A stretch of 36,085 nucleotides of DNA from Vicinamibacterales bacterium (GCA_035632195.1 DASQHH010000604.1:1-36085); one strand, 5' to 3'; shown: positions 15,556 through 36,085, counted from the stretch's first letter. Notes: generated by a model from the sequence alone, not told the origin. Program-made: numbers and translations.

Positions 15556-18396
15556 ATGAAGCGCGCCGTCCTGCTTTCCATATCCCTTCTCGTTGTGGCC
15601 GCGGCGAGGCCCATTGCACAGATGCGCGTCGTGCCTGTGGATGCCGAAGGCGGACACGTGGCGCTCGGGCTCGCGCTGCGTCATCTCGCGAATACCGGCA
15701 TCCTGATGCAGACCACCGCGCATCCAGACGACGAGAACAACGCGCTGCTGGTGATGATGAATCGCGGCCTGGGCTATCGCACGGCGCTCGCGACGGCCAC
15801 GCGGGGCAACGGCGGCCAGAACGAAATCGGGCCGGAGATCTTCGAGGCGCTCGGCGTCCTGAGGACGAAAGAGCTCGAGGCGATGCACCGCTTCGATGGC
15901 GCGGAGCAGTACTTCACGCGAGCCGTCGACTTCGGATTCTCGTTCAGCATCGAGGAAACGTTCGAGAAATGGGGCCGCGACGACATCACGTCCGACTATG
16001 TGCGCCTGATGCGGATGGTCCGCCCGGATGTGATCATCGCGCTGCCGCCAGGCGGCCCCGGCGGCGGGCAGCATCATCAGGCCTCGTCGATCATCTCGCG
16101 CGACGCGTTCAAGCTCGCGGGTGACGCGTCGAAGTACCCCGACCAGCTGCGCGACGGGGTTCGACCGTGGCGGCCGAAGAAGTTCTACGTCCTGACCGGA
16201 TTCGGCTTGCCCGCCGACGCGCCGCCGCAGGGCCACGTCGCGCGCGTCAGCGTTGCGGGATACGACTCGCTGCTCGGCAAGACCTACGCGGAGATCGGCA
16301 CCGAAGCCCGCAGCATGCACAAGTGCCAGGGCATGGCGCAGCTGTTGTCGCTACCGTCGCCGATGTCGTGGACGTATCAGCTCGTCGAGTCGACGCTGCC
16401 GGGTCAGATCGACAACGGGACCGCGCTGAAAGACGAAGCCTCGCTCTTCGACGGACTCGATACGAGCATCGCTGGGCTGGCAAAGCTCGCCGGCGCGCGT
16501 CCGCCGAAGGACCTCATCGACGGCTTGGCGGTCATTGCGCGCTCGGTGACAGCAGCGCAGAAGGCATTCGATGCCGAGACCGACGCTGCCGCGCTCAAGC
16601 CGCTGTTCGACGGCCTGTTCGCCGTCCGGGTCCTGCGGCAGACGCTGAAGTCGCTGCCGATCGAGGACGGGGCGAAGGACGACATCGAATTCCGGCTGCG
16701 TCAGAAGGAGCGCGAATTCCAGCAGGCCATCCTGCTGGCCGGCGACGTCGAAGTCGATGCGCTCGCCGACGACGGCGTGGTCGTTCCGGGCCAGAAGGTT
16801 GCCGTGTCGGCCATCGTTGCCAATCATGGCAATGCCGACGTCAGCATAAAGGGCGTGCGATTCGACGGGTTCTCCGGCGGCGCTGCGTGCGAGCTGCTGC
16901 AAGTCACGGGACCCCTTGCGTTGTTTCCCGGCATGCCGGAGCCCAAGCCGGGACCGCCGCTTTCGACGCTGAAGAAGGGCCAGGTCGCGCGCTGCGTGGT
17001 TCAGCTGCAGGTGCCGCCGGATGCCCGCGTCAGCGAACCGTACTGGCACCGCGCAGGCGAAGCGGGCAGGTACACGTTTGATGACGGCGCGCCGTTCGGA
17101 CTGCCGTTCCGGCCGACGCCGTTCTACGCGCAGCTGACCATGACCTGGCCGGGGCTCGGCGGAAACGAGGAAGTCATCGACGGCATGCCGGTTGAACACC
17201 GGTACGAAGGCAACATCTTCAGCGGCGAGAAGCGCACCCAGCTGCTTGTCGTCCCGGCGTTTTCCGTCAGAAGCGAGCCGGAGATCGCCATCGTTCCGGC
17301 AGCGTCGATTCGAAGCGCGCCAGCCGTACCTGACCGGCCGCAGAAAGGCACCCGCCCTGCTGCCCGGCCGCGCCCGCCGGCCGCGGCCGGGTCGCGCGGC
17401 ACAGCCGTTCCCGCGTCGCCGCCCGCCGCCGATCGCGAAGTTCGCGTGACGGTGGTCAACGACACGCCGACGGCAGCCGAAGCGACAGTGACGCTCGATG
17501 TTCCGGAAGGATGGACCGCGGCGCCGCCCTCGCAGCCGGTGACCTTCACCCGCTCGGATGAATCCCAGACGGTGAAGTTCCAGGTCAAGCCATCGCCGTC
17601 GACGGAGCTGGGCACCTTTCACGTCAAGGCCGTGGTGACCGCTGCGAATGCGCGCTTCGAGCGTGGCTACGAGGTCATCGAATACCCGCACATCACGCGC
17701 GCCCACATCTACATGCCGTCGGACACGACCGTGAAGGTCATCGATGTCCGGACGCCGCCGAACATGACCGTCGGGTATGTGATGGGCGTCGGCGATCAGG
17801 TGCCGCCGGCGATCCAGCAACTCGGGTTGAAGGTGGAGCTGATCACGAGCGACGATCTCGCGTGGGGCGATCTGTCACGGTTCGACGCGATCGTGACCGG
17901 CGTCCGGGCGTACGAGCGGCGCGCCGACCTGCGCGCGAACAACAGCCGGCTGCTCGACTACGTGTTCAAGGGCGGAACGCTGGTCGTCCAGTACAACAAG
18001 CTCGAGTTCAATGCGGCACAGTACGGTCCGTATCCGGCGAAGGTCAGCCAGGATCGCGTCACCGACGAGCACGCGCCGGTTCAGATTCTCGATCCGCACA
18101 ACCCGGTCTTCACGACGCCGAACGAGATCGGCGAAAGCGCGTGGCAGAACTGGGTGCAGGAGCGCGGACTGTACTTCATCGGCGAGAAGGATTCGCGTTA
18201 TCGCGACCTCGTCGAGTTGGAGGATCCGTTTCCATACAACAAGGGGGTCAAGCGCGGAGCGCTCGTGGAAGCGCAGTACGGAAAGGGCCGCTGGATTTAC
18301 GTCGGACTCAATCTGTGGCGCCAACTCCCCGCCGGTACGGATGGCGCCTACCAGCTGCTCGCAAACCTGCTGTCGATCGGGAAGATGAAACCGTAG
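15556..18396 (+). CDS. large secreted PIG-L/LmbE family deacetylase with a C-terminal GATase1/ThuA-like domain
   Basis: Signal-like MKRAVLLSISLLVVAAA. LmbE motif MQTTAHPDDENNAL and a later GGGQHHQAS. C-terminal FDAIVTGVRAYE...GGTLVVQYNK resembles a class I glutamine amidotransferase-like fold. 946 aa. Confidence 0.85.
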   Translation: MKRAVLLSISLLVVAAARPIAQMRVVPVDAEGGHVALGLALRHLANTGILMQTTAHPDDENNALLVMMNRGLGYRTALATATRGNGGQNEIGPEIFEALGVLRTKELEAMHRFDGAEQYFTRAVDFGFSFSIEETFEKWGRDDITSDYVRLMRMVRPDVIIALPPGGPGGGQHHQASSIISRDAFKLAGDASKYPDQLRDGVRPWRPKKFYVLTGFGLPADAPPQGHVARVSVAGYDSLLGKTYAEIGTEARSMHKCQGMAQLLSLPSPMSWTYQLVESTLPGQIDNGTALKDEASLFDGLDTSIAGLAKLAGARPPKDLIDGLAVIARSVTAAQKAFDAETDAAALKPLFDGLFAVRVLRQTLKSLPIEDGAKDDIEFRLRQKEREFQQAILLAGDVEVDALADDGVVVPGQKVAVSAIVANHGNADVSIKGVRFDGFSGGAACELLQVTGPLALFPGMPEPKPGPPLSTLKKGQVARCVVQLQVPPDARVSEPYWHRAGEAGRYTFDDGAPFGLPFRPTPFYAQLTMTWPGLGGNEEVIDGMPVEHRYEGNIFSGEKRTQLLVVPAFSVRSEPEIAIVPAASIRSAPAVPDRPQKGTRPAARPRPPAAAGSRGTAVPASPPAADREVRVTVVNDTPTAAEATVTLDVPEGWTAAPPSQPVTFTRSDESQTVKFQVKPSPSTELGTFHVKAVVTAANARFERGYEVIEYPHITRAHIYMPSDTTVKVIDVRTPPNMTVGYVMGVGDQVPPAIQQLGLKVELITSDDLAWGDLSRFDAIVTGVRAYERRADLRANNSRLLDYVFKGGTLVVQYNKLEFNAAQYGPYPAKVSQDRVTDEHAPVQILDPHNPVFTTPNEIGESAWQNWVQERGLYFIGEKDSRYRDLVELEDPFPYNKGVKRGALVEAQYGKGRWIYVGLNLWRQLPAGTDGAYQLLANLLSIGKMKP

Positions 18397-20990: not shown

Positions 20991-22400
20991 TCAACAGGCG
21001 ACGGGCCGCGACATGTCGGCGATTTCTTCCCGCGCGTGGCGATCGTTGACGCGGTGATCCATGCGCGTTACCCAGTCGCGCACCGCGCCGTTCTGAATCT
21101 TCAGGAAGTTCGCGAGATACGACGGCCGCATGTAGAAGCGCTTGTACGCGGCGCCGAGCAGGTACCGGAGCTCAACCTCGCTCAGATTCGGGTGCTTGAA
21201 CGTCGGCGTGTAGCCGTCGTACTTCTCCCAGTCGTGCTCCGTGAGCAGCGGCTCGATCTGCTTGAACATCGGCGTGCCCGGGTATGGCGTCAGGATCTTG
21301 AACTGCGCGAACGTCGATCCCAGATCCGTCGCGTAGTCGATCGTCGCCGCGATCGAGTTCCAGTCGTCCTGCAGGAATCCCAGGACGTAGAACGCGGCCG
21401 TGACGATCCCCTTCTTGCGGCAGTGGTCGATGATCTGGCGCTGGTGCGTCTGCGGAATCGGCCGGCGTCCGGACTTCTTGAGCGTCTTCGCGTCGAGCGA
21501 CTCCACACCGAAGCTCATCGCGCGGAATCCCGCTGCGTACAGGCGGTCCAGCAATTCGACGTCGAGGCGATCGAGCCGGGTCTCCGCCTCGAACCGGATC
21601 GTGAGGTTGCGCGCCTGGATCTCGTCGCACAGCTCCAGGCAGCGGTCGCGCTGTTCGCTGAACAGCGGGTCGCGGAAGATGACGTACGGCCGCTTGACCG
21701 AATCGCACAGCCGTTCGATCTCGTCGACGATGTTCGCGATCGACCGGGCGCGATAGCCGGCGAGAATGCGGTGCGGACAATAGGTGCAGAACTCCGGGCA
21801 GCCGCGGCTCGCGAGCAGCGGGTAGCCGCCCCCGACGGGGCGCGACGACCATTTGATACCGACCTTGCGCTCGCGATCGTCGGTCACCAGATCCCAGCGC
21901 GGGAACGGCAGGGAATCCAGATCGGCGATCTCTTCGCTGATGCTGATGCCGCTCGGAACCTCGCCCTGCGCGATCCGCATGACGCCGGCTTCTGGTTCGC
22001 CGTTGAGGATGAAGTCGCAGTGGTCCTGGAACAGCTCGGGCATCTTCGACGCGGTGATGCCGATGAAGCCGACCTTCATGCCGCGCGCGCGCATCTGATC
22101 CGCCCACGCGCATTCGGCCTTGTAGTCAACGAGCGACGACAGAACGAGGGCGACGTCCCCGGGCCGCTCGGCTGCCGGCAGATCGCCGCGGGTCCAGATG
22201 ACGTCGTGGCCGGCGCGCGCGAGCAGCGCCGCGCAATAAGCCATGTGGACGCTCGGAACGTCGTGGAACTGTTTCTTGACGTACTGGATCCAGAACGTGA
22301 CCTTGCTGAACGGCTCGAGGCGCGAGCCGTACCCGCCGACGACGGTATCCTTGCTGACAAACCCGCGATCGGACTTCAGATCTGCGAGAACCACCCGCAT
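20991..22400 (-). CDS. class B (cobalamin-binding domain) radical SAM enzyme
   Basis: N-terminal B12-binding-like Rossmann region (MAYCAALLARAGHDVIW...ALVLSS). Radical SAM cluster motif SRGCPEFCTYCPH. SD GAGGTG lies 5 nt upstream of ATG 22400. 469 aa. Confidence 0.9.
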   Translation of the reverse strand: MRVVLADLKSDRGFVSKDTVVGGYGSRLEPFSKVTFWIQYVKKQFHDVPSVHMAYCAALLARAGHDVIWTRGDLPAAERPGDVALVLSSLVDYKAECAWADQMRARGMKVGFIGITASKMPELFQDHCDFILNGEPEAGVMRIAQGEVPSGISISEEIADLDSLPFPRWDLVTDDRERKVGIKWSSRPVGGGYPLLASRGCPEFCTYCPHRILAGYRARSIANIVDEIERLCDSVKRPYVIFRDPLFSEQRDRCLELCDEIQARNLTIRFEAETRLDRLDVELLDRLYAAGFRAMSFGVESLDAKTLKKSGRRPIPQTHQRQIIDHCRKKGIVTAAFYVLGFLQDDWNSIAATIDYATDLGSTFAQFKILTPYPGTPMFKQIEPLLTEHDWEKYDGYTPTFKHPNLSEVELRYLLGAAYKRFYMRPSYLANFLKIQNGAVRDWVTRMDHRVNDRHAREEIADMSRPVAC

Positions 22401-23091: not shown

Positions 23092-24642
23092 ATGACGGGT
23101 AGGATGGTCGTGAGACACGAGGCCCAGGCGTTGAACATGGGGCGTCAGATCGCCGGCACGACACGTCGCAGCGACACTGGCGGCTCTCAGCCGGTGCGCT
23201 CCGATGCGCAGACCGAGCACCTCCTGCGGCGCGCGGGTTTCGGCGCGCGCCCCGACGAACTCGATACCTACAGTCAACTGTCGTACACGGACGCCGTCGA
23301 GGCCCTGCTCGATTACGAAGCAGTACCGGACCTCGTCGACTCGAACATCGGCAAGCCCGGCTATGTGAACGTGACGGTGACCGGCGCATTCTCACCGCAG
23401 TCGGTTATCAACAACTCCCGCCAGCGATGGCTGTTCCGGATGGTCCACACGGATCGCCCGCTGCAGGAGAAGATGACGCTCTTCTGGCACAACCACTTCG
23501 CGACCGGGTACACAAAGATTGCCGGCGCGCTGGGCACCTCCGAGGGTGCGCGGTACCTCGCGGCGAAGGCGTCCGAAGACCCCGGCGGCGTGCGCGGACA
23601 GCTCGAGATGCTGCGGGACAACGCGCTCGGCAACTTCAGGGACATCCTGTTGAACATCGCCAAAGACACGGCGATGCTCGTGTGGCTCGACGGGCGGACG
23701 AACACCAAGGCACAGCCGCAGGAGAACTTCGCGCGCGAAGTGATGGAGCTCTTCACGATGGGCGTCGGGAACTACACGGAGCCCGACGTCTACGCAGGTG
23801 CGCGAGTGTTCTCCGGATGGAATCTGCAGCGGCCCGGCTCTGCCGCAGACGGCTCACAGCATTATGAGTTCGCCTACATCCCTGCGAACCACGAGACGAC
23901 GGCGAAGACGTTCAGTTTTCCGATCTACGCCGACGGCAACCCTACGATTCCGGCGCGCGCTGCGTCGGCCGGGATGCAGGACGGCATCGATCTGCTCAAC
24001 GCGCTCGCCGCCAACCCGAACACCGGCCGGTACCTGGCGACGAAGCTGTACCGGTTCTTTGTGAACGAATTCGGCGACGTCGATCCGGATTTCGTCGGCA
24101 GTATCGCTGCCGTCTTCCAACAGAGCCAGTACGACATGAAACAGGTCGTGCGTGCGGTGCTGCTGTCTCCGCAGTTCATGGATGCGGCGTTCCAGAGATA
24201 TTCGTGGCCGGCCGAATTCACCATTCGGGCGATTAAGGACATCGGGTGGCGCGGGTTCTCCGTGAACGACGCGCTGACGCCTATGGCGAACATGGGTCAG
24301 ACGCTCTACGAACCGCCGAACGTCGCCGGCTGGCCGGCGGGGCAGACCTGGTTCACCACCGGCGCGATGCTGTCGCGGATGAATCTCGCGTCTCAGCTGG
24401 CGACCAACCAGAAGTTCAACCTGGCGTCGGCGGCCAAGCCGTACCGCGCGTCGCCCGAGTCGCTCTTGTCGTACTTCCTCAATCAACTGAGGACCGCTCC
24501 TCTCGACGGCAGCGTCGTTGCGGCGCTGACGACGTACCTGCACGCCAACGGTGCGTGGACCGGCAGCGACACGCAGCTGCAAGCGAAAGCACCGGGCGTT
24601 GTTCACCTGATCGCCGGGCTGCCGGAGTACCAGCTCGTATGA
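23092..24642 (+). CDS. DUF1800 family protein
   Basis: EHLLRRAGFGARPDEL near the N-terminus and MTLFWHNHFAT are the characteristic DUF1800 blocks. Start uncertain (ATG 23092, 23104 or 23137). Confidence 0.85.
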   Translation: MTGRMVVRHEAQALNMGRQIAGTTRRSDTGGSQPVRSDAQTEHLLRRAGFGARPDELDTYSQLSYTDAVEALLDYEAVPDLVDSNIGKPGYVNVTVTGAFSPQSVINNSRQRWLFRMVHTDRPLQEKMTLFWHNHFATGYTKIAGALGTSEGARYLAAKASEDPGGVRGQLEMLRDNALGNFRDILLNIAKDTAMLVWLDGRTNTKAQPQENFAREVMELFTMGVGNYTEPDVYAGARVFSGWNLQRPGSAADGSQHYEFAYIPANHETTAKTFSFPIYADGNPTIPARAASAGMQDGIDLLNALAANPNTGRYLATKLYRFFVNEFGDVDPDFVGSIAAVFQQSQYDMKQVVRAVLLSPQFMDAAFQRYSWPAEFTIRAIKDIGWRGFSVNDALTPMANMGQTLYEPPNVAGWPAGQTWFTTGAMLSRMNLASQLATNQKFNLASAAKPYRASPESLLSYFLNQLRTAPLDGSVVAALTTYLHANGAWTGSDTQLQAKAPGVVHLIAGLPEYQLV

Positions 24643-25904
24643 AGGTAACCCGCCGTGAGTTCGTAAAGGGCGGCGTCGCGGCGTTCACGATGACGTTCGC
24701 GGCCCCGGAGTTCCTGTCAGACCTCGCGCGCGCGCAGGGCGCGTCCACGCGCAACCTCGTCGTCCTGTATTTGAGCGGTGGCAACGACTCGCTCAGCATG
24801 CTGTTTCCGTACACCGATCCGTTCTATTACAGCCGCCGGCCGACGCTCGCCGTACCGGCGGCCAACGCGCTGCAGGTTGGAACCGATTCATCGAGGGTGG
24901 CGCTCGGCCTGCACCCGCGGCTCACCGGGCTGCGCCAGATCTTCGATGCCGGCCGCCTCGCGTTCGTCCAGCGGACCGGTTACGCGAATCAGAGCCGGTC
25001 GCATTTCCTCGGCAGCGATATCTGGTCGGCCGCGAATCCGAACAATTCGACGGCGCTCGGCTGGGTCGGGCGCTATCTCGACTCGCTGCCGTCGCCGGTG
25101 GATCCGCTCGTCGGCTGGAACACCACGTCGACGCTTCCGCATGTGCTGCAGTCGGCCCACACTTCGGTGCCGGCCATAGCGAGCACGAGCGGATACGGCT
25201 TTGCGAGCCCCAACACCGGTGTGGAGGCCGCCGCCGAGCGCAGCGCCGCCGTCGCCATCTCGTCGCACGTTCCCGTCAACCAGCCGCAGCTGGCGTTCGT
25301 CTACGGCAGCTCTTCCGCCGCAATGGCGACGCTCGACCGCGTTGCGCTCGTCAACACCTATCAGGCGAGCGCGACGTACCCGAACACCGGGCTCGGCCAG
25401 GCGTTGAAGGCGGTCGCGGGCGCGATGGCGAAGAATATCGGTACGAAGATCTTCTACGTAACGACCGGCGGGTTCGACAACCACTCGACGCAGAACGTTA
25501 ACAGCACCAACGGCGCGTACTATCAGCTGATGGCGACGCTCAACGATGCGCTGCTGGCCTTTTACAACGATCTCGGCAGCCAGGGTCTCCTCGGCGACAC
25601 CTTGGTCATGAGTTTCTCGGAATTCGGCAGGCGCATCACCGAGAACGGCAGCCATGGAACGGACCACGGTGCGGCGTCGGTGATGCTCGTGATGGGCGGC
25701 CGCGTCAACGGCGGCCTGTACGGCACGGCGCCGAATCTCAATACCGATCCGAAGAATCCCACGCTCGAGAACAACGCCGGCGACGTCACGTTCGAGACGG
25801 ACTTCCGCTCCGTCTACGCCCGCGTTGCCGACAACTGGCTCGGTACCGACTCGGTTGCTCTCCTCGGAGGCGATTTCAGAAAGTCATCCCTGACGTTCGT
25901 TTGA
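24639..25904 (+). CDS. DUF1501 family protein (sulfatase/alkaline-phosphatase-like fold) with a twin-arginine signal
   Basis: Tat motif MKVTRREFVKGGVAAF. LSGGNDSLSM and SEFGRRITENGSHGTDHG are typical of DUF1501. The ATG overlaps the DUF1800 stop as ATGA (24639-24642). Confidence 0.9.
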   Translation: MKVTRREFVKGGVAAFTMTFAAPEFLSDLARAQGASTRNLVVLYLSGGNDSLSMLFPYTDPFYYSRRPTLAVPAANALQVGTDSSRVALGLHPRLTGLRQIFDAGRLAFVQRTGYANQSRSHFLGSDIWSAANPNNSTALGWVGRYLDSLPSPVDPLVGWNTTSTLPHVLQSAHTSVPAIASTSGYGFASPNTGVEAAAERSAAVAISSHVPVNQPQLAFVYGSSSAAMATLDRVALVNTYQASATYPNTGLGQALKAVAGAMAKNIGTKIFYVTTGGFDNHSTQNVNSTNGAYYQLMATLNDALLAFYNDLGSQGLLGDTLVMSFSEFGRRITENGSHGTDHGAASVMLVMGGRVNGGLYGTAPNLNTDPKNPTLENNAGDVTFETDFRSVYARVADNWLGTDSVALLGGDFRKSSLTFV

Positions 25905-28267: not shown

Positions 28268-29243
28268 AGCGGTCACCTATCTCGAGGCGATCCGGCAGGC
28301 GCTCGCCGAAGAGATGCGCCGCGACGGCAAGGTGTTCGTCCTCGGCGAGGACGTGGGCGTCTATGGCGGCGCATTCGGCGTCACGCAGGGACTCTTCGAG
28401 GAGTTCGGCGAAGCCCGCGTCGTCGACACGCCCATTTCCGAGTCGGCGATCGTCGGCATCAGCATCGGCGCCGCGCTGCGCGGGTACCGGCCCGTGGCCG
28501 AAATGCAGTTCGCCGACTTCATTTCGTGCGGCTTCGACCAGATCGTCAACCAGGCGGCGACGCTGCGCTATCGCTACGGCGGCCGGGCCGCGTGTCCAAT
28601 CGTCGTCCGGGCGCCGAGCGGCGGCAACGTCAGCGGCGGACTGTACCACTCGCAGAATCCCGAAGCGTGGTTCGTGCATCGGCCGGGCCTCAAGGTCGTG
28701 GCGCCGTCGGATGCGTACGACGCCAAGGGCCTGCTGAAAGCCGCGATCCGCGACGACAATCCCGTGATCTACTTCGAACACAAGTATCTGTATCGGCGCG
28801 CAAAGGGACCCGTCCCGGACGGCGACGAGATCGTGCCGATTGGCGTCGCGGCGACGCGGCGCGAAGGACGGCACGCAACGCTGCTGACCTACGGCGCGAT
28901 GGTCACGCCGTCGCTCGAAGCGGCTGACGCCATGGCGAAGGAGGGCGTCGAGGTCGAGGTGATCGATCTGCGGACGCTGCTGCCGTTCGACAAGGACGCG
29001 ATTTTCCGATCGATCGACAAGACGAGCCGCGCCGTGATCGTGCACGAGGACGTAAAGACGCTGGGGATTGGCGCCGAGCTGTCCGCCGTGATCATGGAGG
29101 AACGCTTCACCGCGCTCGACGCGCCCGTGCTGCGCGTCACATACCCGGACACGCACGCTCCGTTCGCGCAGGGACTCGAACAGGCCAACCTTCCCAATAC
29201 CGCGAAGATCGTCGCCGCGCTCAGGACGCTCGCCGCGTACTGA
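28260..29243 (+). CDS. 2-oxoacid dehydrogenase E1 component, beta subunit
   Basis: VLGEDVGVYGGAFGVTQGL...RVVDTPISESAIVG...EMQFADF are typical of the E1 beta / transketolase pyrimidine-binding domain. 8-nt overlap with the alpha gene. Confidence 0.9.
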   Translation: MPEAVTYLEAIRQALAEEMRRDGKVFVLGEDVGVYGGAFGVTQGLFEEFGEARVVDTPISESAIVGISIGAALRGYRPVAEMQFADFISCGFDQIVNQAATLRYRYGGRAACPIVVRAPSGGNVSGGLYHSQNPEAWFVHRPGLKVVAPSDAYDAKGLLKAAIRDDNPVIYFEHKYLYRRAKGPVPDGDEIVPIGVAATRREGRHATLLTYGAMVTPSLEAADAMAKEGVEVEVIDLRTLLPFDKDAIFRSIDKTSRAVIVHEDVKTLGIGAELSAVIMEERFTALDAPVLRVTYPDTHAPFAQGLEQANLPNTAKIVAALRTLAAY

Positions 29244-30150
29244 AGATCGCGCTCAAGGCGTCGTCGAGCCGTGAATACGAGAAGGTGAATCCGAGGCGCT
29301 GCGCCTGTGCCGGCACGGCGCGCTGCCCTGAAAGCAGGAGCGCGTCCGCCATTTCGCCAAGCAGCAGCCGAAGCGCAAACGCGGGCGCCGGCAGAAACGC
29401 AGGGCGATGGAGGGCACGGCCGAGCGCCTGCGCGAAGGAGCGGTTGGTTTCCGGCGTCGGCGCCGTGACGTCGATTGGGCCGTTGACCGCCGTCGTTGCG
29501 ATCGCCCACTCGACCATCGCGATCCAGTCCGCACGGTGAATCCAGGGCCAGTACTGCCGTCCCGAGCCGACCGGGCCGCCCGCGCCGAACCAGAACGGCG
29601 GCAGCATCTGCGGCAGCGCCCCGCCGTCCCGCTCGAGCACAAGGCCCGTCCGGATGCATACGACGCGGCACCGATCGGCCGCGCGAGCCGCTTCGGCCTC
29701 CCACGCGGCGCAGACGTTCGCGAGGAAATCGCCGCCCGGCCGCGCCGTCTCGTCGACGATCTCGTCGCCGAGCGGTCCGTAGTAGCCGACCGCAGAGCCG
29801 CTGACGAAGACGCGCGGCGGCGTTCGCGCATTCGCGATCGCCGCGACGAGGCTTCGCGTGGCGTTCACGCGGCTGTCCAGAATCTTCGCCTTCTGTGCCG
29901 CCGTCCATCGGCGTCCGGCGATGGACTCGCCCGCCAGATTGACGACGGCATCCGCGCCGTCAACCACCGAGGCCCATGCGCCGGCGCTTCCGTCCGGCAG
30001 CCATGCCACCTGCAACGGCTGGCCGCTCGCCGGCGCGCCGTGCGAGTCGGCTGATCGAGACAATAGGGTCACGTGATGGCCGTGTGCGGCGAGCGACGCC
30101 GCGAGCGGGCGGCCCAGAAATCCGGTTCCACCGGCGATCACTGTTCGCAT
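29221..30150 (-). CDS. TIGR01777 / YfcH-like epimerase family protein (atypical SDR with DUF1731 C-terminus)
   Basis: VIAGGTGFLGRPL Rossmann motif from ATG 30150. VVNLAGESIAGRRWT and GSGRQYWPWIH blocks are typical of this family. Confidence 0.85.
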   Translation of the reverse strand: MRTVIAGGTGFLGRPLAASLAAHGHHVTLLSRSADSHGAPASGQPLQVAWLPDGSAGAWASVVDGADAVVNLAGESIAGRRWTAAQKAKILDSRVNATRSLVAAIANARTPPRVFVSGSAVGYYGPLGDEIVDETARPGGDFLANVCAAWEAEAARAADRCRVVCIRTGLVLERDGGALPQMLPPFWFGAGGPVGSGRQYWPWIHRADWIAMVEWAIATTAVNGPIDVTAPTPETNRSFAQALGRALHRPAFLPAPAFALRLLLGEMADALLLSGQRAVPAQAQRLGFTFSYSRLDDALSAIFSTRRAS

Positions 30151-30220
30151 GCTGGGATCAACACCGGCTGCTTGTGAATTATTCCGCAAGCGCGACCCGA
30201 GCCGCGCCGGCTCAGCGGCG

Positions 30221-31393
30221 TCAGAACGTCTGCCGCGCCACCCACTCGCGGAACAGCGAATCGACGACCGCGTATCGACTGCCGTCGCGCACCACCATAT
30301 CGTCGCGCACGAGCGCGCCGAGCGCCGCCTGCACCGTCGATGGTCCGCCGAGCCGGAATCGCGCGCGGACGTCCGCCGACAGCATTTCGCGGCCGTCCTC
30401 GACGACGACGGCGCGAAGCACCGCGCGCTGCGCGAGCGTGAGACGCTCCCACAGCGCCTCGAAGATCGCCTGCTGCTCGATCAGAAGACGCTTGAGGGCG
30501 CGATGCAGATCGTCGAGCGTCGCCCGCCGGCGCCCGCGCTGCGCGCGCACTTCGTCCCAGGTTTCGTGGGCGAGGCGCTGCACGTCGTACGGCAGATTCC
30601 CCGCCAGCTCGACGATCGCCGCGCCCAGCCCCTCCTCGGGCCGCATGCCGGAACGGCGGAACCGCCGGTCGATGAACGCGGCGAATTCGTCCGCGGGAAT
30701 CTTGTCGAGGCGCATCACCGGCCCCGCCTTGTAGAACGGCCGCCGGGCGCCGAGCATCCGCTCCATGAGGCTGGGCTCGGAGCCCGCGAAGACGTAGCCG
30801 ACGCTGCGCTGATGCTGTACCGCCGCGCGTAGCGCGTGTTCGACCGACCCGCCGTTGAAGCCGCCGATGGCCTGGAATTCGTCGAGCGCAATGACGATGC
30901 GCCGGCTGCGCGTCTCGGCGAGGCGTCCCGGCAGCGCGAAGACCTCTTCGGCGAGCCGCGCGACGTCGCGGTCGCTGCGGACGCCCGGGAACGACACCGA
31001 CACCGTGCCGCTGCCGGGCGTCCGGAGCGCCGGGTCGGGCGCGTAGCGAATCTCGGCCCGGGCCGATCGGATGGCTTCGCGGAGCCACGAGCGTGCGCGT
31101 TCCCACGCCGTCTCGGCGGTCATCAGCGCCCGCGCGTAGCCCTCGAGAAACGCAACGTACGAGCTGAAGCTGCTGACGGTGACGTCCACGGTCAGCGTGC
31201 CGCGGCGGCGGAGCGCGGAGAGGGCGTGGCGGATGAGCGACGACTTGCCGTACCGGCGCGGAGAGATGAGAAAGACCTTCTGCGCCGCGTGCAGGTCGCG
31301 GACGAGCCGGTCGAGCTCGACGGTTCGGTCGACGAACGCCGCGGCCGGCACGACCTCGCCGTAGACGAAGGGGTTGTCCGTTACGTCGAACAT
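30221..31393 (-). CDS. AAA-type ATPase of the archaeal-ATPase (PF01637-like) family with a C-terminal winged-helix (DUF234-like) region
   Basis: N-terminal PFVYGEVVPAAAFVDRTVEL, Walker A SPRRYGKSS, Walker B RIVIALDEFQ, and a C-terminal LTLAQRAVLRAV... wHTH-like tail. Confidence 0.8.
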   Translation of the reverse strand: MFDVTDNPFVYGEVVPAAAFVDRTVELDRLVRDLHAAQKVFLISPRRYGKSSLIRHALSALRRRGTLTVDVTVSSFSSYVAFLEGYARALMTAETAWERARSWLREAIRSARAEIRYAPDPALRTPGSGTVSVSFPGVRSDRDVARLAEEVFALPGRLAETRSRRIVIALDEFQAIGGFNGGSVEHALRAAVQHQRSVGYVFAGSEPSLMERMLGARRPFYKAGPVMRLDKIPADEFAAFIDRRFRRSGMRPEEGLGAAIVELAGNLPYDVQRLAHETWDEVRAQRGRRRATLDDLHRALKRLLIEQQAIFEALWERLTLAQRAVLRAVVVEDGREMLSADVRARFRLGGPSTVQAALGALVRDDMVVRDGSRYAVVDSLFREWVARQTF

Positions 31394-31421
31394 CGTAACG
31401 GTTACGTATTATAGCGTAATG
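31394..31421 (-). promoter_or_regulatory. AT-rich 28-bp spacer with a consensus TATAAT and a CGTAAC/GTTACG palindrome (candidate promoter plus operator of the ATPase gene)
   Basis: On the minus strand, TATAAT (31413-31408) lies 14 nt upstream of ATG 31393. The palindrome CGTAAC-G-GTTACG (31394-31406) fills that interval. Confidence 0.35.
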
Positions 31422-32660
31422 TCAGTAGTATCTGCGGGGTAGGTCGACGATCACGCGCCGCCGGGCCAGGTCCGCCAGCGCCGGCGGTACGGTCCCCTGC
31501 GACATCGCGTCCAGGGCCGCGCGCTCGACTGTGACGTCGTCGGGCAGGTATCGCCTGCACGCGCCGTATTCCTGCTCGTAGTCGTCCGATGGGAAGCGCA
31601 GCCGCAGGCGCACGCGGCTGCCGGCGGGTTCGGCGGCGTAGAGCGGATTGACGCGGAGCTCGCCGGACACGGGCTTCGGCGGAAGCGCATGCCGGCCGAA
31701 GACGCCCGGATGATGCGTCGCGACCACCGTTAGCGCCGGCGCGGCGTCGAGCGTGGCCTTGCCGTCCAGGCGCGAGAGGTCCAGCGGGCCTCCGGCGACG
31801 ACGTCCTCGAACAGGCCGCCCTCCGCGAACACGCGCGGCGGGAGCGATTCGAAGAGATCGACGTAGCCCTCCGGCGAGAGCGGCTGCCCGTGCGACGGCG
31901 TCCACGTCCGCTCGTTGTGCGTGTGTCCGATCACCACGGCGCCGCGAGCGGGGTCCACGAGTCTCGTCATCTCGCCGACGAACTGGCGCTTGGTCCAGAT
32001 GTACATGAACGCGTCGGTGCACATGGCGTAGCCGAACGCGTCGCGCGCGAAAGGGAACGGCGAGTTGCCGTCGCAGCAGACCGGTTCGCAGCCCGCGGCC
32101 GTGAACCGGCGCGCCAGCCACACCTTCGCGAAATACAGGTCCGCGAGCACGACCGGCTCGGTCGACAGGTCGAGCAGCGTGCGCGTGAGGTGGCCCGAGC
32201 CGCCGCAGATGTCGATCGCGCGGTCGCCCCTCGCCAGCACGGTGCCGGCGACGGCGCGGACGACCGCTTCGGCGACGATGAACGTGGGGTCCGAGAAGCG
32301 GTACAAGAAGTAGCCGCCCTCGAAGTTCGGTCCGAGCGCGTCGACGGTTTCCCGGTACGTCGCGTGAGGCGACGCGGCTACGGCGTCGAAGGCCGCGGCG
32401 TCAGCTTCCGACTCGAGACCGAACATCGTGCGCCGCGCAAGATCGGGACGGCCTGCCTGGACCTGATCCCGCGCCACCGTCGCCGCGGGCTGGAGGTGGA
32501 GCACCGGAATCCCGTCGACGACAGGGAAGATGCAGCAATGGCAGCCGAGGATGCCGTCCTGGATCTCGCTGGCTTCGCGGCGATGAAAGAGCGACTCGAC
32601 CAGCTCGAGGCGTCCGCCGCAATAGGGGCATCGCAGGATTCCGAGCGTGGAGAGGCGCAT
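31422..32660 (-). CDS. class I SAM-dependent methyltransferase with an N-terminal Trm112-like zinc ribbon and an unassigned C-terminal ~150 aa
   Basis: LRCPYCGGRLE...LGCHCCIFPVVDGIPVL (four-Cys ribbon). SAM motif I AIDICGGSGHLT. ATG 32660 shares one base with the upstream stop. The track extension to 33389 is rejected. Confidence 0.8.
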   Translation of the reverse strand: MRLSTLGILRCPYCGGRLELVESLFHRREASEIQDGILGCHCCIFPVVDGIPVLHLQPAATVARDQVQAGRPDLARRTMFGLESEADAAAFDAVAASPHATYRETVDALGPNFEGGYFLYRFSDPTFIVAEAVVRAVAGTVLARGDRAIDICGGSGHLTRTLLDLSTEPVVLADLYFAKVWLARRFTAAGCEPVCCDGNSPFPFARDAFGYAMCTDAFMYIWTKRQFVGEMTRLVDPARGAVVIGHTHNERTWTPSHGQPLSPEGYVDLFESLPPRVFAEGGLFEDVVAGGPLDLSRLDGKATLDAAPALTVVATHHPGVFGRHALPPKPVSGELRVNPLYAAEPAGSRVRLRLRFPSDDYEQEYGACRRYLPDDVTVERAALDAMSQGTVPPALADLARRRVIVDLPRRYY

Positions 32661-33487
32661 CAGGGCGCCGTCACGGGATCGCCGAACTCCTCGAGCACAC
32701 CGTTGCCGGCGGCGGCGAGCGGCGACCGCCGGAAGTACTCGACGCCGAGCCAGCGGCGCGCCACCTCGTCGTCGATCCACGCGATCGGATTGTTCGTCCC
32801 CATCTGCGTCCGGTGGCAGCGCAGGGCGGCGAGCTTGCGAGGAATCCATTCGCGGACGTCGATCGAAAACGTCGGCGGCGCCGCGGAATCGCCGAACGCG
32901 TCCGGCTCGATCCCCCAGAAGCTCGAGTCGGACGGCGCTCCGCCCTTCGCGTGGGCGGCGTCGACGACTTCGCGCATGACGCCTTTCGGCATCGTGACGT
33001 AGTAGAGCGGGGGAGCGTCGTCGCCGAGGGACTTCACCGCGGTATACGTGCGCTCGTGCACGCCGATGTGATCGAGGTGCCAGTACAGACCGTCCTCGGC
33101 GAACGTGATGACCGCGTCCGGCCGGTACCGCTGCAGCGCGGCGACGATCTCCGCGTGGAACTCCGGCACGTTCGCCCAGCGCAGATCGCCGTCGGGATGA
33201 TCTTCCTGGATTACTTCGGCGACGCCGAGGACGGCGGCCGCTCGCCCGAGCTCGTCGGCGCGGACCCGTCCGAGGTCGCCGTCGGGCACGAGCGCCGGAT
33301 CGCTGATCGATCCGGATTCGCCCTTCGATCCGCAGAGCAGCACCACGCGGACGCCCGCGTCGGCAAGGCGCGCCAGCGTGCCGCCGCACGCGAGCGATTC
33401 GTCGTCGGGATGGGCGAAGACGGCCAGCACCGTCCGCGGTGCCGCCGCTGCGGCGTCGGGCGGACGTTCAGCCCCGCTGTCGGACAC
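32660..33487 (-). CDS. PIG-L / LmbE family zinc deacetylase (MshB/BshB-like)
   Basis: VLAVFAHPDDESLACGGT and YWHLDHIGVH zinc-ligand motifs. The GTG start is preceded by GGAGG (33498-33494) with a 6-nt spacer. Confidence 0.9.
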   Translation of the reverse strand: MSDSGAERPPDAAAAAPRTVLAVFAHPDDESLACGGTLARLADAGVRVVLLCGSKGESGSISDPALVPDGDLGRVRADELGRAAAVLGVAEVIQEDHPDGDLRWANVPEFHAEIVAALQRYRPDAVITFAEDGLYWHLDHIGVHERTYTAVKSLGDDAPPLYYVTMPKGVMREVVDAAHAKGGAPSDSSFWGIEPDAFGDSAAPPTFSIDVREWIPRKLAALRCHRTQMGTNNPIAWIDDEVARRWLGVEYFRRSPLAAAGNGVLEEFGDPVTAP

Positions 33488-34505
33488 GATTCGCCTCCAC
33501 GATCCGTCGATAGACGGCGATGTATTCGTCCACCATCCGCGCGGCGCCGAAACGGGCGACGGCGCGCTCGCGCACGCGGCGCCGATCGAGGTTGAACACG
33601 CGCGGCAGCTCGTTGACCATCTGCTCGAGATCCCCGTAGATCACGCCTGTCACGCCGGCGTCGACGACTTCACGCACGGCGCCTTTGTCGAGGGCGGCCA
33701 CCGGCGTGCCACACGCCATCGCTTCGGCGAGCACGAGGCCGAACGGCTCGCGCGACTGAATGGGGTAGATCAGCGCGCGCGCGCCGCCGTACAGCTTTAC
33801 TTTCTCCTCGAAGCTCGCTTCCCCGTAGTAAATGATGTGCCGGCCGTCGACGTGCGGCGCGACTTTTTCTCGGTAGTAATCGTCCGCGGCGGCCGCCAGA
33901 ATCAGCTTCATCCCGACGCGCTTGGCGATCTCGATCGCCTGCAGGACCCCCTTGCCTTCGGTGAACCGGCCGAGGAAAAGGAGATAGTCGTCAGGCTTTT
34001 CGTTGAACAGGAAGTTGTCGGTGTCGATGCCGTGCAGGACGGTTGCGACGATGTTCAGGCCGTCGAGCAGTTGTGCCTGTTCGTTCGAGATCGCGACGAA
34101 GGGGGCCTCGGGGTAGCGCGACCAGAGACGGAATTCTGCCTGGCTCGGCGAATTGTGAAGCGTCTGGACGATCGGTGTCGGCGACAGGCGCGCAAACGCG
34201 AGCGACATCGGGTAGTACGCGGCCTCGTAGTGGATGAGATCGAAGTCCCTCGCGCGCTCGACGGCGGCCGCGAGGTTGAGCATTTCGTACAGTTCCCACG
34301 GCCACATGTTCTCGTCGTGCCAGTAGCCGTGCGGGTAGATGGCGTGCAGCTTCGCTCTCGTGGTGGAGTCGCCCGTCGCGAAGAGCGTGACGTCGACGCC
34401 TCGCGCGACGAGGCCTTCGGTGAGCAGCGACGTCATCGTCTCGACCGAGCCCGATTTCGGCGGCGGTATCGTCGTGGCCACCGGCGCGATGTGCGCTATG
34501 CGCAC
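33468..34505 (-). CDS. glycosyltransferase family 4 (GT-B fold)
   Basis: N-terminal [12 protein letters not shown]... from GTG 34505, preceded by GGAGG (34514-34510). C-terminal EX7E region SREPFGLVLAEAMACGTPV. The track extension to 35561 is rejected. Confidence 0.9.
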   Translation of the reverse strand: MRIAHIAPVATTIPPPKSGSVETMTSLLTEGLVARGVDVTLFATGDSTTRAKLHAIYPHGYWHDENMWPWELYEMLNLAAAVERARDFDLIHYEAAYYPMSLAFARLSPTPIVQTLHNSPSQAEFRLWSRYPEAPFVAISNEQAQLLDGLNIVATVLHGIDTDNFLFNEKPDDYLLFLGRFTEGKGVLQAIEIAKRVGMKLILAAAADDYYREKVAPHVDGRHIIYYGEASFEEKVKLYGGARALIYPIQSREPFGLVLAEAMACGTPVAALDKGAVREVVDAGVTGVIYGDLEQMVNELPRVFNLDRRRVRERAVARFGAARMVDEYIAVYRRIVEANRVRQRG

Positions 34506-35614
34506 GCCACCTCCAGCAGCCGCGGGAGGATGACGTTCGCGTCGAAGTGATCGCGCGCGATCTCGGCCGCGCACTTCGAGTGCCGGGCATAGTCGCGATT
34601 GACGGATTCGATGCCGTCGAGCGCTTCGTCGGCGGTCGAGAACGCGAGGAGCCCGTCGCCGGACGGCAGGTGCGCGGTCCAACCCGTATCCTGCACAACG
34701 GCGGGGCGGCCCGCGGCGAGGTAGCACTCGGTGCGGTCGCTGAACCAGCCGGAGCGGTTCGCGACGTAGGTGTGCTTCGCGACGCCGAACTCCGCCTTGG
34801 ACGCCTGGACGAAGTCGCGGTACTGGTCCGGCGTCCTCGACACACCCATCGCCGGCACCGTGTCCCAGCCGTACTCCTGGAGCAGCTTCTGCGGGCCGTT
34901 GATGGCCAGCTCGAACTTCTGCGGCGTCTTCGACGGCAGCTCGATGAAGCGCACGAACTCCTGGTCCTTGTTGCCGCCGACGTCCGTGAAGCTCTCGATC
35001 TGCCACGTCATGACGCTGGTGAAGCGATCGCGCGGCGGCGCGGACGTGCGCCAGTCGTCGAGCGTGATCGGCTGCCACGTCTTGTGCCACGTGAAGTCGC
35101 CGACCGGCACGGGTGACGCCGGCGTTCCGATGTTCGATCCGAACGTGAACAGGCGATCGAACCGCCGGAAGAACGCGACGTACCAGGGCTCGGCCTTCGC
35201 GATGGCGAGCTGCGTGAACGCCGGGTCCGAGTCGATGAAAGCCTTGTGCGGGATGCGCGCGTACTCGTCGCGCCAGAACCACGACCCGCCGGACAGGTTC
35301 AGGAACAGATCCGCCTCGGCGGCGTACGCGCGGACGTGTTCGGCCGTGCGGCCGTGATACGACCCGTCGTAGTTGACGAACGACCACCGGTCGCCGAGGC
35401 CGTACGGCTCGAGCGCCGCGTTGATGTACGACGTGCCGTACGACGGATCGAGCGCGCGCGTGTTCTGAATGGGGTCGTACACGCATTCGCCGGTGTCCTC
35501 GATGTAGAAGACCTCGTGGCCGAGCGCGCGCAGGCCGAGCAGGTACATCAGCGAGCACCACGTCACGCCGCCGAACGGGTACCTCGCGATGATGCCGGCA
35601 AACAGAATCCTCAG
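34496..35614 (-). CDS. GT-B-fold glycosyltransferase-like protein of unrecognised family (the C-terminal half resembles CgeB / Glyco_trans_1_2-type domains); probable CTG start
   Basis: The in-frame, stop-free, GC3-rich sequence upstream of the track start encodes (L)[15 protein letters not shown], a typical first strand plus Gly loop of a GT-B N-domain. GGAGG (35626-35622) lies 7 nt before CTG 35614. C-terminal [16 protein letters not shown] block. The minimal version is 34496-35566 (GTG). Confidence 0.65.
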
Positions 35615-36085
35615 CGCCGCGCCTCCTGAATCAGTTCGTCGACGGTCTCCGGGTCATCGAGCGATTTGCCCACGGAAAGCCGGGCGCACATCCGCCGGTA
35701 AAGGTCGCTCGTCTTCAGCAGCTCGTCGTGCCGCCCCTGCGCTTCGATGCGGCCGTTGTCGAGGACGAGGATGCGGTCGGCGTCGCGGACCGTCGACAAC
35801 CGGTGAGCAATGACGATGGTCGTGCGTCCCGCGCGCAGGCGCCTGATGGCGCTGAACACGATCTCTTCGGAGATCGCGTCCAGCGACGACGTCGGCTCGT
35901 CGAGGATCAGGATCGGAGCGTTCTTCAGAATCGCCCGCGCGATGCTGAGCCGCTGCCGCTCGCCGCCCGACAGGCTGGCGCCGGCTTCGGCGATCTCCGT
36001 CTCGTAGCCCTTCGGCAGCTTCGAGATGAATTCGTGGGCGTGCGCCGCCTTCGCCGCGTCCTCGATTTCCTTCTTGGTGGCGTCG
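35611..36085 (-). CDS. ABC exporter, ATP-binding domain (MsbA / type I exporter-like), C-terminal part; the 5' end lies right of the window
   Basis: The frame is open to the window edge. ABC signature [14 protein letters not shown], Walker [13 protein letters not shown] and H-loop IVIAHRLST. The track starts at 35859 only because no start codon occurs further upstream in the frame. Confidence 0.9.

Follow-up and report, generated by a model that had tools for sequence, protein, structure and literature searches.

Which product is made by an operon that combines an ATP-binding cassette (ABC) exporter of the MsbA type with two GT-B glycosyltransferases (GTs), a PIG-L/LmbE-family zinc de-N-acetylase and a zinc-ribbon methyltransferase? 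This question is raised by the right end of a 36,085-nucleotide (nt) stretch of DNA from a Vicinamibacterales bacterium (GCA_035632195.1, DASQHH010000604.1:1-36085; hereafter the window), where these five genes follow one another on the minus strand. A first-pass annotation of the sequence alone had proposed that the GT4 enzyme adds N-acetylglucosamine (GlcNAc), which the PIG-L enzyme then de-N-acetylates, yielding an exported or membrane-anchored glucosamine-containing product. Our analysis favors a different answer. With a probability of roughly 0.55, the operon would assemble an oligomeric or polymeric saccharide, or a glycoconjugate head group, in the cytoplasm, decorate it, and export it via the MsbA-type ABC protein. 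The window carries genes 2-6 of an operon of six genes that is characteristic of Vicinamibacterales (Acidobacteriota). Its persistent functional unit is the exporter with the neighboring GT-B protein of an unnamed family (hereafter gene2), usually accompanied by a synthase that joins a glycoside hydrolase (GH)-like domain to a GT2 domain, and the PIG-L deacetylase and the methyltransferase are lineage-specific tailoring enzymes.

Operon organization and conservation

All five domain assignments of the first-pass annotation were supported by Pfam and NCBIfam, which returned ABC_tran (best model, MsbA_rel) for the exporter, a weak Glyco_trans_1_2 match for gene2, Glycos_transf_1 and Glyco_transf_4 for the GT4 protein, PIG-L for the deacetylase, and a below-cut-off match to a Trm112-like ribbon with Methyltransf_25/11 for the methyltransferase. 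Direct minus-strand reading of 31300-36085 also reproduced every junction overlap that had been described. The TGA of the ABC gene (35613-35611) overlaps the CTG of gene2 (35614-35612), the TAG of gene2 (34498-34496) lies within the GT4 gene (GTG at 34505-34503; 10-nt overlap), the GT4 TGA (33470-33468) lies within the PIG-L gene (GTG at 33487-33485; 20-nt overlap), and the PIG-L/methyltransferase junction reads TGATG (32662-32658). The GGAGG motifs that had been placed 4-7 nt 5' of three internal starts were found at 35626-35622 (7 nt upstream of gene2), 34514-34510 (4 nt upstream of GT4), and 33498-33494 (6 nt upstream of PIG-L).

Scanning the GTDB species representatives with a four-sequence alignment of gene2 returned 80 loci, all from close relatives, in which gene2 was 68-84% identical. 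When all operon proteins were placed on these loci by tblastn, the order synthase, ABC exporter, gene2, GT4, PIG-L, and methyltransferase was found on one strand in about 75 of the 80 species-level loci; the order is visible only in loci that are long enough, and the tight junctions were counted in about 57-75 loci. The median spacers along the six-gene order were -4, -1, +8, -8, and +1.5 nt, with start codons set by alignment to the window proteins. Because both gene order and tight junctions are conserved in related loci, the arrangement exceeds what chance would produce. Thus, the conservation of gene order that the first-pass annotation had suggested looking for in related genomes is present in Vicinamibacterales, and the five window genes form a real, translationally coupled operon.

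The operon genes upstream of the window were read from relatives (80-87% identity), not from the window contig. In these relatives (L002-L004), a his operon and a DUF4097 gene are followed by a gene for a protein of 1,284-1,289 amino acids (aa), a 619-aa ABC exporter, gene2, GT4, PIG-L, and the methyltransferase, and the stop of the 1,284-1,289-aa protein overlaps the exporter start. Therefore, the earlier description of a five-gene operon with its 5' end beyond the window was correct as to a coupled operon, but not as to its extent, since relatives show a sixth, leading gene.

At the other end, the ATPase_2 gene that follows in the window after 28 nt is not a conserved neighbor across the 80 loci, and the same holds for an epimerase/DUF1731 gene. 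ATPase_2 orthologues in 19 loci, adjoining the operon or elsewhere, are preceded by TTACG-N8-CGTAAC-N2-TTACG around a TATAAT-like box; this element probably serves as a conserved promoter/operator and leaves only a very short leader. Given that ATPase_2 has its own conserved upstream element and is not a conserved neighbor, the operon ends at the methyltransferase stop (31422). In the window, the 28-nt gap before the ATPase_2 ATG (31393) is AT-rich amid a GC content of ~64-70% and contains TATAAT followed by the palindrome CGTAACcGTTACG. Neither a sigma-70-like promoter nor a minus-strand terminator-like site was found in 29000-36085, a result of little weight, since this phylum may use promoters of a different kind; the three terminator-like matches in this interval all lie on the plus strand, and their number is not above that in shuffled sequences.

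Table 1. Operon genes and the element at the operon's 3' boundary (window coordinates unless a relative's locus is named)
Feature	Coordinates	Strand	Basis
Synthase, 1,284-1,289 aa, first gene of the operon, outside the window	L002 3926-7780; L004 4241-8110		
MsbA-type ABC exporter half-transporter, C-terminal 157 aa (nucleotide-binding domain), truncated by the window end	35611..36085	-	PF00005, TIGR02204
gene2, 372-aa GT-B-fold protein (predicted) of an unnamed family, CTG start	34496..35614	-	81 orthologues, AF2 model, weak PF13524
GT4 glycosyltransferase, 345 aa, TeGSS/Tll1591-like	33468..34505	-	PF00534 + PF13439
PIG-L/LmbE-family zinc de-N-acetylase, 275 aa	32660..33487	-	PF02585
Methyltransferase, 412 aa: Trm112-like zinc ribbon, class I S-adenosylmethionine (SAM) core, C-terminal region of ~150 aa	31422..32660	-	NF038101, PF13649, PF08241
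3' boundary element: AT-rich TATAAT box and CGTAACcGTTACG palindrome, directly upstream of the ATPase_2 gene (30221-31393)	31394..31415	-	

The exporter, gene2, and the synthase

The window fragment of the ABC exporter matched PF00005 with 50 bits and, as its best model, MsbA_rel (TIGR02204) with 195 bits. Full-length orthologues of 619 aa contain ABC_membrane and ABC_tran in one polypeptide (PF00664, 120 bits, and PF00005, 115 bits, in L002). The earlier assignment as an MsbA-type exporter is therefore right in the sense of a fused type, with transmembrane domain (TMD) and nucleotide-binding domain (NBD) in one chain, which remains under the equivalog cut-offs for MsbA (403.8 vs 602 bits), the glucan exporter (375.5 vs 733), and HepA (348 vs 725).

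The probable CTG start that the first-pass annotation had given to gene2 is correctly placed according to an alignment of 81 orthologous loci and the length of the homologues. The aligned start codon is ATG in 46 loci, GTG in 30, TTG in four, and CTG in one, with a 4-nt NTGA overlap on the ABC stop in about half of them. The 120 homologues listed are 367-398 aa long, nearly all of them 372 aa, with a query coverage of 99-100%, and the list of open reading frames contains no ATG, GTG, or TTG in the gene2 frame upstream of 35566. We take the CTG to be the true start position and a rare start codon, which gene2 probably tolerates by virtue of stop-start coupling. Otherwise, a CTG start in gene2 orthologues was seen only at L041 10001-10003, in a Luteitalea metagenome-assembled genome (MAG). 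The CTGA overlap of gene2 may be a natural case of re-initiation that tolerates a non-canonical start.

Homologues of gene2 with 80-87% identity come from soil metagenomes and from MAGs named Vicinamibacterales (Acidobacteriota), and tblastn of gene2 against plasmids gave no match. No other protein of the operon is as conserved, with 68-87% identity for gene2 versus 39-84% for PIG-L and 37-76% for the methyltransferase (loci L002-L084). This suggests a strong constraint on gene2, perhaps from a protein-protein interface with the exporter.

The gene2 family is large, with 3,484 representative clusters (50% identity) found at E<=0.001 and 623 left at 1e-30. Its sole Pfam match is PF13524 (Glyco_trans_1_2), at 25.6 bits against a cut-off of 25, and sequence searches of the PDB gave no useful match. 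A structural model predicted by AlphaFold2 (AF2) from a 36-sequence alignment of distant homologues reached a pLDDT of 94.6 and a pTM of 0.93, and Foldseek returned 285 PDB matches for it at E<=0.001. Retaining GT-B enzymes stood on top (TM-score 0.55-0.63, ~12% identity), including T4 AGT (alpha-glucosyltransferase), PglA, BshA, MshA, and PimA. The model thus indicates a GT-B fold nearest to retaining GTs, in agreement with the earlier description of a second GT-B protein of unrecognised family, for which there is no specific Pfam or NCBIfam model. Comparison with the profile of the operon's own GT4 by hhalign gave a probability of 15%, and the EX7E motif of GT4 enzymes is not kept, as its first Glu aligns with Gly289 and Glu296 is not conserved (36 sequences). 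The polar residues conserved in the family alignment (E39, K216, E275, K280, R294, Q308, T310, and R350) would be compatible with an active nucleotide-sugar enzyme.

The synthase that leads the operon consists, from N to C terminus, of a clan-GH-A-like TIM-barrel, a GT2 domain, about five transmembrane (TM) helices, and an NHL beta-propeller. The GH-like domain shows weak similarity to GH2_C and, in a distant homologue, to GH72. Even homologues at 38-45% identity keep its motifs GNE(I/V)P and LxExG without change, and these would supply the acid/base residue and the nucleophile, both glutamates. The best models for the GT2 domain are MftF (161 bits) and PgaC (119 bits), both below their cut-offs. 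Neither a signal peptide nor a TM segment was found ahead of the GT2 domain; judged from the sequence alone, this would place the GH-like domain in the cytoplasm and the NHL propeller in the periplasm. The propeller is found in Vicinamibacterales only. We found no described enzyme matching the GH-like/GT2/TM/NHL architecture.

Distant lineages and gene fusions

Breadth beyond Vicinamibacterales was assessed at three loci with synthase, ABC, and gene2 homologues (L086, L089, and L091), one with an ABC-gene2 fusion (L093), and one with gene2 paralogues only (L094). In the first three, the gene2 homologues (41-54% identity) adjoin homologues of the synthase and the exporter together with one to three gene2 paralogues. 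The synthase homologues are 38-45% identical over residues 22-866, with the GH-like domain included and without the NHL propeller, and the ABC homologues are also 38-45% identical. PIG-L and this methyltransferase occur in none of the three loci, which carry instead a pyruvyl transferase, hexapeptide acyltransferases, or other GT4s. These results do not support a central role for PIG-L and the methyltransferase, since the partnership kept at a distance is that of synthase, exporter, and gene2, with other decorating enzymes in place of the pair. It is this replacement elsewhere by pyruvyl-, acetyl-, sulfo-, and phosphotransferases that marks PIG-L and the methyltransferase as lineage-specific tailoring.

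Fusions within the gene2 family point to the same type of partner. In a Pfam scan of 18 multidomain members, the fusion partner was GT2 in seven, GT4 in three, an APH-type kinase in three, a sulfotransferase in three, a methyltransferase in two, an ABC exporter in two, and a YdjC sugar deacetylase in one. The enzymes around gene2 are therefore the usual set of polysaccharide decorations, and deacetylase and methyltransferase functions are tied by fusion to the gene2 family, not to GT4. The first-pass annotation had mentioned fused PIG-L/methyltransferase proteins in other phyla; our literature searches, which included no protein survey aimed at such fusions, found none described, and they also found nothing on PDB entry 9FZ9.

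In four fused proteins (P0254, P0238, P0225, and P0220), the ABC part belongs to the same exporter subfamily (41-58% identity, BLAST) and precedes gene2, as in the operon. P0254 and P0238 are true ABC-gene2 fusions, and P0225 and P0220 probably are as well. One ABC-gene2 fusion (L093) lies in a sulfation context, with GT2 and genes for the synthesis of 3'-phosphoadenosine-5'-phosphosulfate. Separately, five proteins from close relatives (P0167, P0131, P0204, P0129, and P0191), 82-95% identical to the window, join the end of the ABC protein to gene2 or gene2 to GT4. Given the 4-10-nt overlaps at these junctions, they are probably artefacts of gene calling or frameshifts.

The GT4 glycosyltransferase

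By a wide margin, the closest characterised relative of the GT4 protein is TeGSS/Tll1591 of Thermosynechococcus (PDB 7fg9; E 7.7e-80, 46% identity over 333 columns, residues 1-336). The next solved relatives are tetrahydrobiopterin glucosyltransferases, with BshA and PimA at only 36-39 bits. TeGSS is a retaining alpha-1,2-glucosyltransferase that uses uridine diphosphate (UDP)-glucose as donor and extends sucrose (PMC9909042). The homology to the glucosylsucrose synthases TeGSS/Tll1591 and Alr1000 (PDB 7fg9, 7fga, and 8x3q) is full-length, and the TeGSS residues Arg179, Lys184, and Glu256, which bind the UDP diphosphate, have identical counterparts in R180, K185, and E253. In contrast, the acceptor-side residues Trp10, Tyr18, Arg117, Thr119, Asn122, and Trp254 are all replaced. 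W10 has become A and Y18 has become S, and both A10 and S18 are nearly invariant in 24 orthologues; in TeGSS, the Y18F mutant of the residue at the position of Ser18 is nearly inactive. The genomic context also differs, being an export operon here and a sucrose-phosphate synthase neighborhood for TeGSS and Alr1000.

Considering the changed acceptor-side residues and the export-operon context, sucrose is not expected to be the acceptor, and the chemistry may possibly differ from that of TeGSS. The most economical reading of these sequence features is a UDP-hexose alpha-transferase, probably using UDP-glucose, that would act on a saccharide acceptor other than sucrose. Scores against three NCBIfam models were low, with 33.2 bits against a cut-off of 462.5 for MshA (TIGR03449), 43.7 against 273.7 for BshA, and 44.6 against 480 for GpgS (NF053787). 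The scheme in which GT4 adds GlcNAc for subsequent de-N-acetylation by PIG-L, modelled on MshA/MshB, BshA/BshB, and PIG-A/PIG-L, is therefore not supported, as the enzyme is TeGSS-like and scores 33-45 bits where the cut-offs are 274-480.

The deacetylase and the methyltransferase

The PIG-L protein matched PF02585 with 103 bits (cut-off 28.2), and H26, D28, D29, H137, D139, and H140, in the motifs AHPDD and HxDH, do not vary among 25 orthologues. Loss of the zinc ligands, which the first-pass annotation had named as an outcome that would speak against its reading, was not seen; ligands and catalytic residues are kept. Its closest solved relatives are archaeal diacetylchitobiose deacetylases and MshB (E 1e-12 to 1e-9), and the motif aligns with the Dac and MshB structures. 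Every equivalog score is below its cut-off (MshB 86.1 vs 224.35, Mca 82 vs 277.15, BshB1 65.6 vs 182.5, and BshB2 69.8 vs 195.25).

The methyltransferase matched PF08241 with 21.2 bits, which equals the cut-off, and PF13649 with 25.7 bits against a cut-off of 27. Its putative Trm112-like ribbon scored 31.5 bits against NF038101 (cut-off 77), and profile searches of the PDB returned only Trm112-like proteins (E 2e-6) and weak class I methyltransferases. The cysteines C11, C14, C40, and C42/43 and the SAM motif I, D150-x-C-G-G-x-G-H, are invariant in 29 orthologues. As the first-pass annotation had noted for ~150 residues, the C-terminal ~150 aa have no match in sequence or PDB profile searches.

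Proposed pathway and alternative explanations

For the sugars used, the order of steps, the nature of the product, and its final location, we infer the following pathway. The GT2 domain of the synthase would form a backbone, and the cytoplasmic GH-like domain, with both catalytic glutamates kept, may remodel the chain. GT4 would add an alpha-linked hexose, probably glucose, to a saccharide acceptor differing from sucrose. Acting at or with the exporter, gene2 may add a residue that is then modified. In Vicinamibacterales, this modification would concern an N-acetylhexosamine, most plausibly introduced by gene2 or GT2, which PIG-L would de-N-acetylate and the zinc-ribbon methyltransferase would methylate. 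The ABC exporter would then move the finished product across the inner membrane, where the NHL propeller of the synthase, facing the periplasm, may receive it.

Of the product foreseen by the first-pass annotation, export is retained in this pathway, but the small amino-sugar conjugate is not, as the evidence points to a glycan or glycoconjugate. Its statement that no named pathway fits is confirmed, since all proteins of the operon score below the curated thresholds of the named pathway families, and the literature that we searched describes no orthologous cluster.

Several points weigh against the proposed pathway. Both the product and the donor sugars of the three GTs are predictions. The synthase GT2 domain lacks the QxxRW motif and is perhaps not processive. 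In gene2, which is without the EX7E motif, catalytic competence is inferred only from the conserved K216, E275, K280, and R294. The scores of the ABC protein do not separate the MsbA, glucan-exporter, and HepA models, and methylation may be on N or on O. In addition, no gene for a polyprenyl-phosphate initiating transferase, Wzx/Wzy, or the outer-membrane polysaccharide export (OPX) and polysaccharide co-polymerase (PCP) proteins was found in the operon or within ~10 kb of it in relatives. The locus thus points to no particular acceptor, anchor, or final location, and the product may stay in the periplasm or in the membrane.

A membrane aminoglycolipid is accordingly the first alternative, which we regard as unlikely, though not negligible. 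Here, one or more GTs would place a GlcNAc-containing head group on diacylglycerol, phosphatidylglycerol, or a similar membrane lipid, PIG-L would expose the amine, the methyltransferase would N-methylate it, and the glycolipid would reach the outer leaflet with the ABC protein acting as flippase. Lipid flipping is known for MsbA-type exporters, and MsbA models are among the best matches of the ABC protein. The absence of outer-membrane export genes nearby in relatives fits such a product, and a membrane-retained molecule would suit the periplasmic NHL domain. There is also an experimental precedent, because a triad of GT4, deacetylase, and flippase has been established for glucosaminyl-phosphatidylglycerol (GlcN-PG) and HNHDRG (PMC12713373). 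The systems GpgSDF of P. aeruginosa (GlcN-phosphatidylglycerol) and HexSDF of C. difficile (an aminoglycolipid) are, like the operon here, composed of a GT, a de-N-acetylase, and a membrane translocator, and they expose a cationic glucosamine outside the cytoplasm (PMC12713373). Nevertheless, their enzymes belong to other families, with a COG3233 or CE4-type deacetylase and a UPF0104/MprF-like translocator where we find PIG-L and an ABC protein, GT4 is not a GpgS orthologue, and two further GTs, a GH-like domain, and a methyltransferase are present only in the operon described here. The presence of three GTs, and of a GH-like domain whose catalytic glutamates are intact, points to a longer saccharide than a lipid head group. 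Moreover, GT4, at 44.6 bits against the GpgS cut-off of 480, is far nearer to a glucosyltransferase that forms soluble oligosaccharides, and in relatives the place of PIG-L and the methyltransferase is taken by pyruvyl, acetyl, and sulfo transferases, enzymes of the sort usual for polysaccharides.

We consider it rather improbable that the product is a periplasmic oligosaccharide of the osmoregulated or cyclic-glucan type, made by GT2 with the GH-like domain as transglycosylase, carrying alpha-glucose branches added by GT4 and a methylated amino sugar, and exported in the manner of NdvA/ChvA. The pairing of a GH-like-GT fusion with an MsbA-type exporter parallels Cgs with ChvA/NdvA and the GH17-GT2 protein NdvB (PMC10237404), in which a membrane GT is likewise fused to a GH-like domain. 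The nearest characterised relative of GT4 makes stress-induced alpha-1,2-glucosyl oligosaccharides (PMC9909042), outer-membrane export genes are absent from the relatives, and the glucan-exporter model matches the ABC protein with 375 bits. However, this score is not better than those against the MsbA models, and the GH-like domain, with weak GH2_C and GH72 matches, is neither GH17 nor GH94. In the NdvB-type synthase, a periplasmic GH17 domain is connected via TM helices to a cytoplasmic GT2 domain, whereas the GH-like domain here abuts GT2 and should be cytoplasmic. Tailoring in Cgs and NdvB systems is by succinyl or phosphoglycerol groups, in contrast to PIG-L and the methyltransferase, and the synthase here has an extra NHL propeller. 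No glucan has been reported for Vicinamibacterales.

The soluble, ABC-exported small amino-sugar conjugate of the earlier reading, resembling mycothiol, bacillithiol, or an aminoglycoside intermediate, ranks last and is very improbable. Such a pathway would have GT4 place GlcNAc on a small acceptor, PIG-L remove the acetyl group, and the methyltransferase and the second GT complete the metabolite. Although PIG-L has MshB/Mca-like length and motifs and scores 82-86 bits against these models, BshA and MshA are among the Foldseek matches of gene2, and ABC exporters are common in natural-product clusters, the thiol-pathway models stay far below their cut-offs (MshA 33/462, BshA 44/274, MshB 86/224), no cysteine ligase or acetyltransferase occurs in the operon or in conserved neighbors of relatives, GT4 is TeGSS-like, a 1,284-aa membrane GT2 protein leads the operon, and the distant core lacks PIG-L. 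The absence of an MshC/BshC-type cysteine ligase, already pointed out in the first-pass annotation, thus extends to the conserved flanks in relatives. As in MshA/MshB, BshA/BshB, and PIG-A/PIG-L, a GT-B gene adjoins that of a PIG-L/LmbE zinc deacetylase whose active site is intact, but here the equivalog cut-offs are not reached, the adjacent GT4 is nearest to a glucosyltransferase, and PIG-L is dispensable across the wider clusters.

Two further schemes were compared and rejected. A Nod-factor-like logic (NodC, deacetylase, NodS, and NodIJ) is contradicted by a NodC score of 28.8 bits against a cut-off of 550, the lack of a NodS match, and a different ABC type. A hopanoid HpnI/HpnK logic fails because HpnI scores 33.9 against 310 and the HpnK family is YdjC, not PIG-L.

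The cytoplasmic assembly and export proposed for the operon can also be compared with the WbdA/WbdD/Wzm-Wzt systems for O-antigen and capsule with terminal capping, in which multiple GTs act in the cytoplasm, export is by an ABC transporter, and GTs are fused to kinase or methyltransferase modules. Fusions of this kind are also seen in the gene2 family. The exporter, in contrast, is a fused TMD-NBD half-transporter instead of Wzm/Wzt, and the locus is without an initiating phosphoglycosyl transferase, a ligase, or OPX.

Implications

The components of the operon all come from known superfamilies, a glycan or glycoconjugate operon with an ABC exporter is of a familiar kind, and nothing in the operon contradicts established principles. 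What is new is the combination of genes, the physical coupling of an unnamed GT-B family to a dedicated MsbA-type exporter, and the architecture of the synthase. A vague amino-sugar pathway has become concrete as a six-gene unit in which GT4 is probably a UDP-hexose alpha-transferase, the deacetylase keeps an intact active site, and a physical GT-exporter coupling is predicted from fusions. Both the unnamed GT-B family and the GH-like/GT2/NHL architecture deserve classification.

A wider generalization, speculative and doubtful at present, is that the gene2 family and its dedicated MsbA-type exporter form an undescribed, widespread module that glycosylates, modifies the terminal residue, and exports. 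Docked on or fused to the exporter, gene2 would install a terminal sugar, the modification of which would license export of a glycan that the cytoplasmic GH-like/GT2 synthase has made. This modification would be de-N-acetylation and methylation here, and sulfation, phosphorylation, pyruvylation, or acetylation elsewhere. If true, the module would be a third architecture for ABC-dependent glycan export beside Wzm/Wzt and PglK-type flipping, and a Vicinamibacterales glycan, periplasmic or surface, would carry (N-)methyl-glucosamine.

Vicinamibacterales rank among the most abundant soil bacteria and among those least often cultured, and to our knowledge there is no experimental information on the glycans of their envelope or on those that they secrete. 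Since the operon occurs in at least ~75 species-level genomes with gene2 held at 68-87% identity, its product probably matters to the envelope or to interactions with the soil matrix.

Other features of the window

No tRNA or Rfam match was found anywhere in the window. Other genes encode an Ada-type regulator/methyltransferase with the domains Ada_Zn_binding, HTH_AraC, and DNA_binding_1 (10103-11179, +), a radical SAM protein (20991-22400, -), and a DUF1800/DUF1501 pair (23092-25904, +). Additionally, a second, unrelated PIG-L-domain protein of 946 aa (15556-18396, +; PIG-L at residues 53-179, with NPCBM_assoc) lies directly downstream of a CarboxypepD_reg/TonB-dependent-receptor-like outer-membrane barrel (12458-15427, +). 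This second PIG-L locus looks like an uptake locus for N-acetylated glycans.

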